In this document: piece after piece, positions 9,181 to 9,658 of the stretch
Layout: each line of letters starts with the position of its first letter
Numbering within the stretch: the stretch's first letter is position 1
IMG/VR virus record: IMGVR_UViG_2660238190_000005
Span: 1-13,701 of that record
DNA length: 13,701 bases
Source: a virus
Taxonomy: Duplodnaviria > Heunggongvirae > Uroviricota > Caudoviricetes
Strand: one strand, 5' to 3'
The notes under the pieces: generated by a model
What the model was told of the DNA's origin: nothing
Databases searched by the model: none
What the model saw: the letters and a program-made list of their open reading frames with translations, nothing else
Program-made: the position numbers and the translations under genes

Positions 9181-9399
9181 GTCCACCTCGCCTGATGTGG
9201 CTAAAAGCAGGCACATAACAGCTAAGTATTTTCAACCAGAGAGAATCCTTAGCGTTGTGGTGAATGCGGCTCAGCGCACGCGGGTTAAGGTTGAGGCTGA
9301 CAGTCGACCTTCTGTGGATACCTACCCGCCTGGTGTGCAACCTTCGCCAGGCACCGGGAGGCACCCGGCACCACAACTTTATGCTGTGTGTAGTCCTGG

Positions 9400-9444
9400 C
9401 GGTACCAGTTTGTACCCTTGCTTCCGGCTGGTACCGTCCTTTTT
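9400..9444 (+). terminator. Hairpin plus T-tract (candidate intrinsic terminator / tL-like site) inside the GC-rich non-coding region
   Basis: CGGTACCAG (9400..9408) pairs with CTGGTACCG (9428..9436) across a 19-nt loop, followed by TCCTTTTT. Confidence 0.4.
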
Positions 9445-9533
9445 ACAAAACAGAGAAGAGCATCACCGGACGACGGGCTCATAACCCAATCCATCCGGGC
9501 GGCTGCCACCGCAGGTGTTCTTCTCTGTTTTGT
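9445..9533. repeat. Perfect 15-bp inverted repeat forming a long stem around a 59-nt GC-rich interior; candidate structured RNA or recombination/regulatory element
   Basis: ACAAAACAGAGAAGA (9445..9459) is the exact reverse complement of TCTTCTCTGTTTTGT (9519..9533). The interior holds further short palindromes (GCGG..CCGC). Another hairpin GCCCC-tgcg-GGGGC follows at 9546..9559. Confidence 0.6.
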
Positions 9534-9658
9534 GGAGAAACTAACCGCCCCTGCGGGGGCATCTATTGAAACGTAATTGACTCAATAATCGCCGGATGGT
9601 GAGGGCTTCCTTTTCCCAAAATTCAGCGCGGTGCAGCGCATATAAAGTGGAGAACGAA

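Follow-up and report, generated by a model that had tools for sequence, protein, structure and literature searches.

What is the function of a GC-rich and apparently gene-free region of DNA that lies just ahead of the early-left genes of an Escherichia coli prophage? The region occupies positions 9190 to 9590 of the window, which is the whole 13,701-nucleotide stretch of DNA that was analyzed (IMG/VR record IMGVR_UViG_2660238190_000005); positions are those of the window unless stated otherwise. The original prediction, made from the letters alone, described it as densely structured noncoding DNA and offered several candidates for what it might be: a small RNA (sRNA), a put-like antiterminator, the remnant of a retron-like element, or a cluster of regulated terminators. 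The window is an E. coli lambdoid prophage of the SfV/ST64B-like type, inserted at tRNA-Thr (thrW) beside proA. We found that the region is very probably the distal part of a long, untranslated, and folded leader of the transcript that starts at the early-left promoter (PL). In this leader, an STnc100-family RNA with its terminator is followed by a three-way-junction RNA that we call module B. The structures exist, their stems covary, the RNA strand is the + strand, and their place in the operon is as described below.

A folded region upstream of the early-left genes

The region is flanked by an accessory gene of the ECs1072 family (8679 to 9113, - strand) and by yfdR (9659 to 10195, + strand), so that its reported location between an accessory gene and the early-left genes is borne out. 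Its G+C content is 0.54 to 0.56, compared with about 0.42 to 0.46 in the flanks. Folding against shuffled sequences placed the structure well above chance. Positions 9215 to 9600 reached -162.6 kcal/mol (z = -5.7, equaled by 0 of 100 shuffles), and the inverted repeat at 9445 to 9533 by itself reached -45.5 kcal/mol (z = -7.3, equaled by 0 of 200 shuffles). The parts of the folded leader within this region, all on the + strand, are as follows.

9221 to 9253, + strand: 5' hairpin (GCUAAG.../...CUUAGC), an inverted repeat present in the minimum-energy fold.
9254 to 9377, + strand: multibranched core closed by GUUGUGGUG/CACCACAAC and holding the hairpin CCGGG-AGGCA-CCCGG, as seen from Rfam RF02076 and covariation.
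9378 to 9399, + strand: single-stranded linker UUUAUGCUGUGUGUAGUCCU, unpaired in the centroid fold.
9400 to 9444, + strand: intrinsic terminator, a 13-bp stem and then UCCUUUUU, as seen from folding and alignment.
9445 to 9533, + strand: module B, a three-way junction, as seen from the fold and covariation; no Rfam match.
9474 to 9487, + strand: loop and closing pairs of the P2 arm of module B, CGGGCUCAUAACCC (as written also CGGGCTCATAACCC), identical to the anticodon stem-loop of the E. coli initiator tRNA (metZ).
9534 to 9545, + strand: conserved tail GGAGAAACUAAC after the P1 helix of module B, kept in relatives.

A divergent member of the STnc100/PasD family

The first element was recognized in a permissive Rfam scan, in which STnc100 (RF02076) matched 9224 to 9446 on the + strand with 43.1 bits and an E value of 5.4e-8, over the whole model (positions 1 to 206 of 206). 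The Rfam check that had been suggested for this locus thus gave a result at the permissive threshold and, at the gathering threshold, yielded the tRNA-Thr alone. Besides STnc100, no Rfam family scored below an E value of about 0.6 in the region; weak matches to DicF, ftsZ-DE, Hairpin ribozyme, and PhotoRC-I (E values of 0.6 to 5) were treated as chance. The copy in Salmonella phage ST64B scored 35.1 bits against the STnc100 model.

The paired stems of the core keep their pairing through double changes. Among 18 diverse relatives, the closing stem contains two pairs with 8 double changes each, and the AGGCA hairpin contains two pairs with 7 and 3; the covariation covers these two stems, and the middle of the domain aligns poorly. 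A hairpin is also present in ST64B at the place of the 9221-to-9253 hairpin, with a different sequence. The element resembles STnc100/PasD in its alignment to the full length of the model, its closing helix, its CCNGG-AGGCA-CCNGG hairpin, its 3' terminator, and its occurrence in enterobacterial lambdoid prophages. It differs in scoring below the gathering cutoff and in lying in an early-left leader. On the strength of these alignments we take the homology to STnc100 to be real, and we assign 9221 to 9444 (about 220 nt) to the STnc100/PasD family as a divergent member.

STnc100 is a multicopy RNA family of prophages. Its copies in strain EDL933 are transcribed with low ribosome coverage, and one has been confirmed by Northern blotting (PMC5331693). 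It has been described as a prophage sRNA related to the Hfq-associated PasD (bioRxiv 10.64898/2026.05.13.724894), and STnc100/PasD copies are located near Q, stx2, esterase, and lysis genes (the same preprint and a study of outer membrane vesicles). We also observed a second type of STnc100-like core, with a closing helix of 19 to 20 bp, in other lambdoid prophages (loci L127, L131, L139, L141, L149, L171, and others).

The core is separated from the terminator by a conserved stretch, GCUGUGUGUAGUC, that stays unpaired, and the linker segment GCTGTGTGTAGTC is kept in divergent relatives. The linker at 9378 to 9399 is a candidate sRNA seed or Hfq-binding region; no target for the candidate seed was found within the window. 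STnc100/PasD RNAs carry another sequence in the unpaired stretch ahead of their terminator, and therefore any targets would differ.

The hairpin with a T-run that had been noticed here proved to be a real intrinsic terminator, and the region thus holds both an sRNA-type element and a terminator. CGGTACCAG (9400 to 9408) pairs with CTGGTACCG (9428 to 9436) and is followed by TCCTTTTT. The hairpin with its flank folds at -20.5 kcal/mol, and 6 of the last 9 nucleotides are T. It has the marks of an intrinsic terminator, namely, a G+C-rich hairpin followed by a U-run, with pairing kept across many unrelated stems: the stem is wholly different in ST64B and in many other relatives, and the hairpin and T-run are retained. 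A simple scanner missed this terminator because its loop is longer than 8 nt. Such scans miss long-loop terminators, and we therefore judged terminators by folding and alignment. The idea of a terminator cluster was an overstatement, since 9190 to 9590 contains one convincing + strand terminator and the GC hairpin at 9546 to 9559, which does exist, has no T-run on the + strand.

A three-way-junction RNA at a fixed place in the leader

The inverted repeat at 9445 to 9533 was confirmed. Its outer 15 bp are exact, and it extends to arms of 25 nt that are 84% complementary. The repeat forms a 20-bp closing helix (P1), in which pair 11 is a conserved mismatch (24 of 27 sequences) and pair 19 is a conserved U.G wobble. 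P1 encloses the P2 arm (CCGGR...YCCGG and then GGG-CUCAUAA-CCC) and a hairpin of variable length, P3. Nothing speaks for a retron remnant, no dedicated retron test having been run: the repeat encloses a covarying three-way junction, no reverse transcriptase is annotated in this prophage, and the region gave no Rfam match of that kind.

Two sets of sequences were used to examine module B. The first comprised 22 nonredundant sequences retrieved by a pattern inside P2; 94.9% of the cells were paired, with 10 double-change pairs, and 0 of 500 shuffles reached the observed values. A pattern placed in P2 biases the apparent conservation of the interior, and we therefore collected 65 loci through the YfdP protein alone. 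A covariance model located module B on the + strand in 30 of these 65 loci. In this YfdP-anchored set, 93.6% of the cells were paired and there were 13 double-change pairs; again 0 of 500 shuffles reached the observed values. Model scores at module B sites were 62 to 108 bits on the + strand and 25 to 44 bits on the - strand. Together with the STnc100-family match, this covariation supports the earlier suggestion of a functional structured RNA, and it places that RNA on the + strand.

About 23 nt of the interior are nearly invariant across genera of Enterobacteriaceae in the YfdP-anchored set. Proteus and Yersinia retain the P1 arms and the mismatch and have a different interior. Upstream of a weak module B match in a Proteus locus (L256, 2821 to 2846), we also noticed GGGTTCGAATCCCGTC, which resembles the T-arm and 3' end of a tRNA and precedes a P1-like helix.

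The place of module B is constant. A T-run lies directly 5' of it in 24 of the 25 strong hits examined, and its end lies about 45 to 50 nt before the first early-left start codon in intact relatives. The gene that follows is YfdP in 106 cases, YfdR in 18, and RdgC-like or others in 17. Each phage has one copy. This fixed position before whichever gene comes next indicates a cis-acting leader element rather than a gene-specific regulator or a mobile repeat. Resemblances of 7 nt to ops (RfaH) and rrn boxA, noticed only on visual inspection of the stem of the terminator and the 3' side of P1, were judged to be chance.

The promoter and a conserved element at the 5' end of the transcript

The leader begins well upstream of the region under study, with the following features.

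8306 to 8349, + strand: PL promoter (TTGACA, 16 nt, CATAAT; 8306 to 8333) with two OL operators, found by promoter scan with 11 of 12 matches.
8340 to 8412, + strand: Lx, about 70 nt at the 5' end of the PL transcript, conserved directly after the promoter.

The promoter immediately follows the cI terminator and reads rightward (+ strand). The operator pattern TGTACC-N5-GNNACA occurs only at OR (7558 to 7574) and at 8313 to 8329 and 8333 to 8349, compared with 0.01 occurrences expected by chance. By these sequence signals, we identify 8306 to 8349 as PL/OL.

Lx is conserved even though the operators of the preceding promoters differ; this was seen in about 30 of the 65 YfdP-anchored prophages and across many enterobacterial genera. 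It is present in 49 phage records and is almost never annotated there. The predicted fold consists of a closing stem and two short hairpins, and one 5-bp stem covaries strongly, with 13, 6, and 11 double changes. Lx has no Rfam match. It is single-copy in each phage, and searches of the window and of the complete ST64B genome gave no second copy that could be a putR analogue. Pairing of Lx with the downstream leader was considered and dropped, because the duplex predictions were inconsistent between the window and ST64B. When the literature was searched for exact strings from the three leader elements, no paper contained them.

In phage HK022, putL lies just downstream of PL (PMC9378689). The region at 9190 to 9590 starts about 850 nt downstream of PL, which speaks against its being a put-like antiterminator, as had been proposed. 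It is Lx that resembles the put elements of HK022 and HK639: it occupies the putL position, is about 70 nt long, lies upstream of terminators, and occurs in phages without an apparent N. Unlike put, which consists of two long stems, Lx has a closing stem with two short hairpins, and it is a single copy where HK022 has putL and putR. The HK639 record annotates a putL-like RNA. HK022 putL itself has no Rfam match, which shows that Rfam has no put family. Models R1 and R2 found nothing in HK639, and R2 found nothing in HK022. By analogy of position, Lx is a candidate for the signal that lets PL transcripts pass the leader terminators, and it may be an undescribed antitermination or leader signal. 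This read-through role is proposed because Lx occupies the position of HK022 putL, and on that basis alone.

A possible checkpoint in the leader

We suggest the following scenario. The region would be transcribed from left to right (+ strand) as part of the PL leader, and its terminator would be a checkpoint. Transcripts that enter from the upstream side and lack an antitermination signal, for instance those running on from the accessory genes in a lysogen, would halt at 9444. Halting there would free the STnc100-like sRNA and keep the downstream early-left genes silent, including those for the excisionase and the integrase. Derepressed PL transcripts, in contrast, would carry Lx, which would make RNA polymerase resistant to termination and allow read-through. 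The P1 helix, with its mismatch and wobble, would most likely be a site of the RNase III type, at which double-strand RNA is processed or recognized, and processing there would split the leader from the message and determine how stable the first gene's message is or how well it is translated.

Read-through would be needed because one or more strong + strand terminators separate PL from the genes; two can be read in ST64B. P1 has a feature of RNase III sites that is necessary and not sufficient, namely, about two turns of helix (20 bp, with the mismatch at pair 11). We infer read-through control, sRNA activity, and a processing role for P1. The checkpoint with read-through is a tentative proposal to which we give somewhat less than even weight, and the RNase III-type role we regard as doubtful. 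When the description of the leader, the checkpoint with read-through, and the RNase III role are blended, the explanation as a whole is the one we favor, with a modest lean toward its being right.

The PL operon leader of phage lambda offers a close precedent in layout. It is long, structured, and untranslated; it holds nutL, an RNase III site, and N, and its terminators need read-through. Like it, the leader described here has terminators to be read through and, shortly before the first ribosome-binding site, a long helix of double-strand RNA. It differs in its signals: no boxA (YGCTCTTW) is found on the + strand between PL and the early-left genes of the window, no boxB-like hairpin was noticed (by reading only, as N was also judged), and ST64B has no N-like open reading frame (ORF) between PL and the terminators.

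There is also precedent for an sRNA that arises in this way. As has been described (PMC7547250), a leader or promoter-proximal terminator acting without antitermination yields a short and stable RNA able to act as an sRNA, with StxS and lambda 6S RNA as examples. The likeness would lie in a short terminated RNA that is a by-product of antitermination control. StxS and lambda 6S RNA are products of the late promoter PR', which is controlled by Q, whereas the RNA of the window lies in an early-left leader.

Several observations weigh against the proposed mechanism or parts of it. The STnc100 match does not reach the gathering cutoff of 47 bits and is absent from the gathering-threshold scan, and the promoter scan found no promoter-like site just upstream of 9221. 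In other lambdoid early-left operons, second-type STnc100-like cores do not precede a terminator; they lie right after a terminator T-run and a few bases 5' of the ribosome-binding site of an ORF, and these ORFs look kil-like. Since a core can directly precede an ORF elsewhere, its role may exceed that of a terminated base-pairing sRNA. Lx and module B occur independently in many prophages, and mEp460 has module B and no Lx; therefore, the modules are not an obligate system. The Lx model found nothing in HK022 or HK639 at E values up to 10. Finally, an RNase III role leaves the strong conservation of the module B interior in Enterobacteriaceae unexplained.

The alternative that survives best is that both elements are independent, trans-acting sRNA cargo carried in the PL leader, with no part in early-left control. 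It would account for the varying combinations of modules among prophages, other STnc100 members are found in late regions and are expressed in lysogens, and a conserved unpaired stretch beside a terminator is typical of Hfq-dependent sRNAs. However, module B has no terminator of its own, and a promoter-like site was found for neither element. Its placement, directly after an upstream T-run and at nearly the same distance from the first ORF whichever ORF that is, is the behavior of a cis-acting element. We therefore consider cargo unlikely and prefer the folded leader with a checkpoint.

Other readings of module B

The P2 arm raises a different possibility. Its 14 nt at 9474 to 9487 match the metZ anticodon stem-loop at 14 of 14 positions and appear as a 7-nt loop on three G-C pairs. 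Such a match, together with the nearly invariant interior and a three-way junction with conserved unpaired bases, would suit a new class of self-acting or factor-binding RNA, such as an anticodon-arm mimic, a riboswitch-like sensor, or a self-cleaving ribozyme, with its activity in the interior. Among 26 copies examined from the YfdP-anchored set, 25 retain the CUCAU of the loop, and the remaining one, from Scandinavium, has a different loop. However, the last two loop bases (positions 6 and 7) vary (AA, UA, or UC), in some cases placing a pyrimidine at the position of purine 37 in tRNAs, 6 of these 26 copies have lost the third G-C pair, and the interior is swapped in Proteus and Yersinia while P1 is retained. 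ARAGORN detected no tRNA-like gene here, and Rfam gave no tRNA or transfer-messenger RNA match in 9050 to 9700 at E values up to 10; among Rfam ribozyme models at E values up to 10, there was only the chance-level Hairpin-ribozyme match (14.5 bits, E value of 5.4).

We record the anticodon-arm identity as a lead, without a claim, and consider a new class of this kind quite improbable. The same slender chance is given to a two-part version, in which module B is an undescribed phage leader RNA that imitates the initiator-tRNA anticodon stem-loop and Lx is, separately, an unrelated class of RNA-only antiterminator. If the mimicry were true, the arm of module B would engage a partner of the genuine anticodon arm, namely, the 30S P site together with IF3, MetRS, or an anticodon nuclease of the kind represented by the enteric VapC toxins, which cleave tRNA-fMet, and anticodon mimicry would control or protect early phage gene expression.

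The inverted repeat might instead act as DNA, for example, as a protein-binding palindrome, a cruciform, a recombination site, or a miniature transposable element. The exactness of its outer 15 bp fits this idea, as does the conservation, even in Proteus, of the arm sequences beyond what pairing requires, and the - strand also folds well (z = -6.1). However, most of the non-Watson-Crick pairs read as G.U on the + strand. The U.G wobble, which would be a C.A mismatch on the other strand, is kept in 23 of 27 sequences. In addition, the inner arms P2 and P3 covary independently, the model scores on the two strands differ as given above, and one copy per phage at a constant place in the operon is unlike a mobile element. 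These findings make a DNA element very improbable, and we retain the RNA reading of module B.

The region does not code for protein

The claim that this region is noncoding holds, as no reading frame is conserved among relatives. Annotation pipelines have treated it otherwise. PGAP calls a "frameshifted hypothetical protein" at 9257 to 9576 (+ strand), the ORF at 9285 to 9509 (- strand) matches phrog_3651 (E value of 1e-48), the ORF at 9418 to 9576 (+ strand) matches phrog_33599 (E value of 4e-16), and the SfIV annotation has overlapping ORFs on both strands of this stretch. All PHROGs matches are to unannotated families, and no ORF of the region matches Pfam or NCBIfam.

Among close relatives, the unique indels are +1, +7, -3, -5, +1, +1, and +5, most of which are not divisible by three. 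Codon-position bias is not significant for any frame in this set; the frame 9264 to 9569 has 25 substitutions at third codon positions versus 15 and 13 at the others, a slight excess that is not significant (p of about 0.1). In tblastn comparisons with divergent relatives, all overlapping frames on both strands match alike, and amino acid identity (50 to 56%) falls well short of the corresponding nucleotide identity (about 77%). The length of module B varies between 89 and 114 nt and shows no periodicity of three. A decayed protein gene, whether the one called by PGAP or the phrog_3651 ORF of the - strand, would account for these annotations and for the slight third-position excess, yet it is hardly credible given indels and lengths that ignore codons, frames that score alike on both strands, protein identity well under nucleotide identity, the lack of Pfam or NCBIfam matches, an annotated strand that differs between genomes, and a conservation that base-pair covariation explains. 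The region does not code, and the PGAP pseudogene call, phrog_3651, and phrog_33599 are probably ORF artifacts over a conserved structured RNA.

Surroundings of the leader

The remaining features of the early-left region are given below.

8423 to 9113, both strands: accessory block inside the leader, with a - strand terminator (8423 to 8442), a 73-amino-acid ORF (8486 to 8707, + strand), and the ECs1072-family gene (8679 to 9113, - strand).
9546 to 9658, + strand: yfdQ-yfdR spacer with the hairpin GCCCCUGCGGGGGC (9546 to 9559) and the palindrome (9575 to 9585), aligning with the K-12 and mEp460 spacers.
9659 to 10195, + strand: yfdR (5'-deoxynucleotidase), the first early-left gene past the leader in this prophage.

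The only tRNA that ARAGORN finds in the window is the tRNA-Thr at 12258 to 12333. The immunity genes are of the ymfK/ymfT/ymfL type, with the LexA-family repressor gene ymfK at 7592 to 8266 (+ strand) and the cro-like ymfT together with ymfL on the - strand. Downstream of yfdR are genes for a DUF551 protein, a hypothetical protein, a helix-turn-helix protein (excisionase in the SfIV annotation), and the integrase.

The locus is widespread. Part of 9100 to 9660 is matched by 2,799 of 5,426 complete E. coli genomes, and 678 match at least 80% of it. Close phage relatives are SfIV, SfII, SfV, and Kati, at 96 to 98% identity, and ST64B is about 77% identical. In SfIV, mEp460, and ST64B, the first early-left genes are yfdP, yfdQ, and yfdR, with the same leader elements between cI and them, apart from the Lx of mEp460. 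ST64B has about 750 nt from PL to the first early-left gene without any annotated gene, and it has no accessory block between Lx and the downstream modules. In E. coli K-12, the region upstream of yfdP in prophage CPS-53 lacks all the modules, so that K-12 data are of no help here.

Both yfdP and yfdQ are absent from the window. SfIV, mEp460, and ST64B carry the two genes between module B and yfdR, and K-12 also has both; the arrangement in SfII is that of the window. The intact yfdP-yfdQ segments used for comparison were L003 3151 to 4721 and L002 3186 to 4438. Because the spacer aligns with those of K-12 and mEp460, the junction left by the loss of yfdP and yfdQ can be placed at about 9546, between two similar GC hairpins, one after module B and one after yfdQ. 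The palindrome ATTGA-C-TCAAT is found at 9575 to 9585 as described, and it is not conserved, being imperfect in K-12 and mEp460 (ATTAACTCAAT). Judged by these alignments, the 9546-to-9559 hairpin and the palindrome are ordinary spacer, outside the conserved leader.

Some further observations concern the accessory genes and the rest of the prophage. Two direct repeats, 34 bp apart, lie at 9124 to 9187 (TTGTTGGGGATAACCAG..., TTGTTGGGGAATAACCAG...), just upstream of the start of the ECs1072-family gene on the - strand, and they may be promoter or regulator sites of that gene. In Sp4 of strain Sakai, the ECs1072 gene has another context, which is uninformative for the present locus. A - strand terminator (AAGCG.C...GCGCTTTTTT) immediately follows Lx at 8423 to 8442 of the window and also in loci L254, L223, L212, L255, L268, and L248. 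Its presence in several unrelated prophages suggests that accessory genes in reverse orientation have been inserted repeatedly at this point. Positions 1472 to 5400 of the window are a patchwork of gene fragments (DUF4113, DinI, recombinase, tail fiber, and MarR pieces, all annotated as partial), among which are an intact DUF262 gene and ParA; from this patchwork, the prophage is degraded beyond its replication genes. In ST64B (L274), positions 30004 to 30192 (+ strand), inside the annotated sb41, contain adjacent matches to isrK (64 bits) and C4 antisense RNA (80 bits), both above their gathering scores. The pair looks like an antirepressor control module of the P1/P7 type in the right operon.

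Implications

With the element at 9221 to 9444, the early-left leader becomes a second kind of genomic location for the STnc100/PasD family. Prophages like SfV, SfII, SfIV, and ST64B are common in E. coli, Shigella, and Salmonella, and their early-left operon has no recognized N or nut system. The leader described here combines an STnc100-type RNA capped by a terminator, a covarying three-way junction that is not in the catalogues, and a conserved element at the 5' end. These parts would provide a testable basis for how such prophages gate early transcription, excision, and integration.

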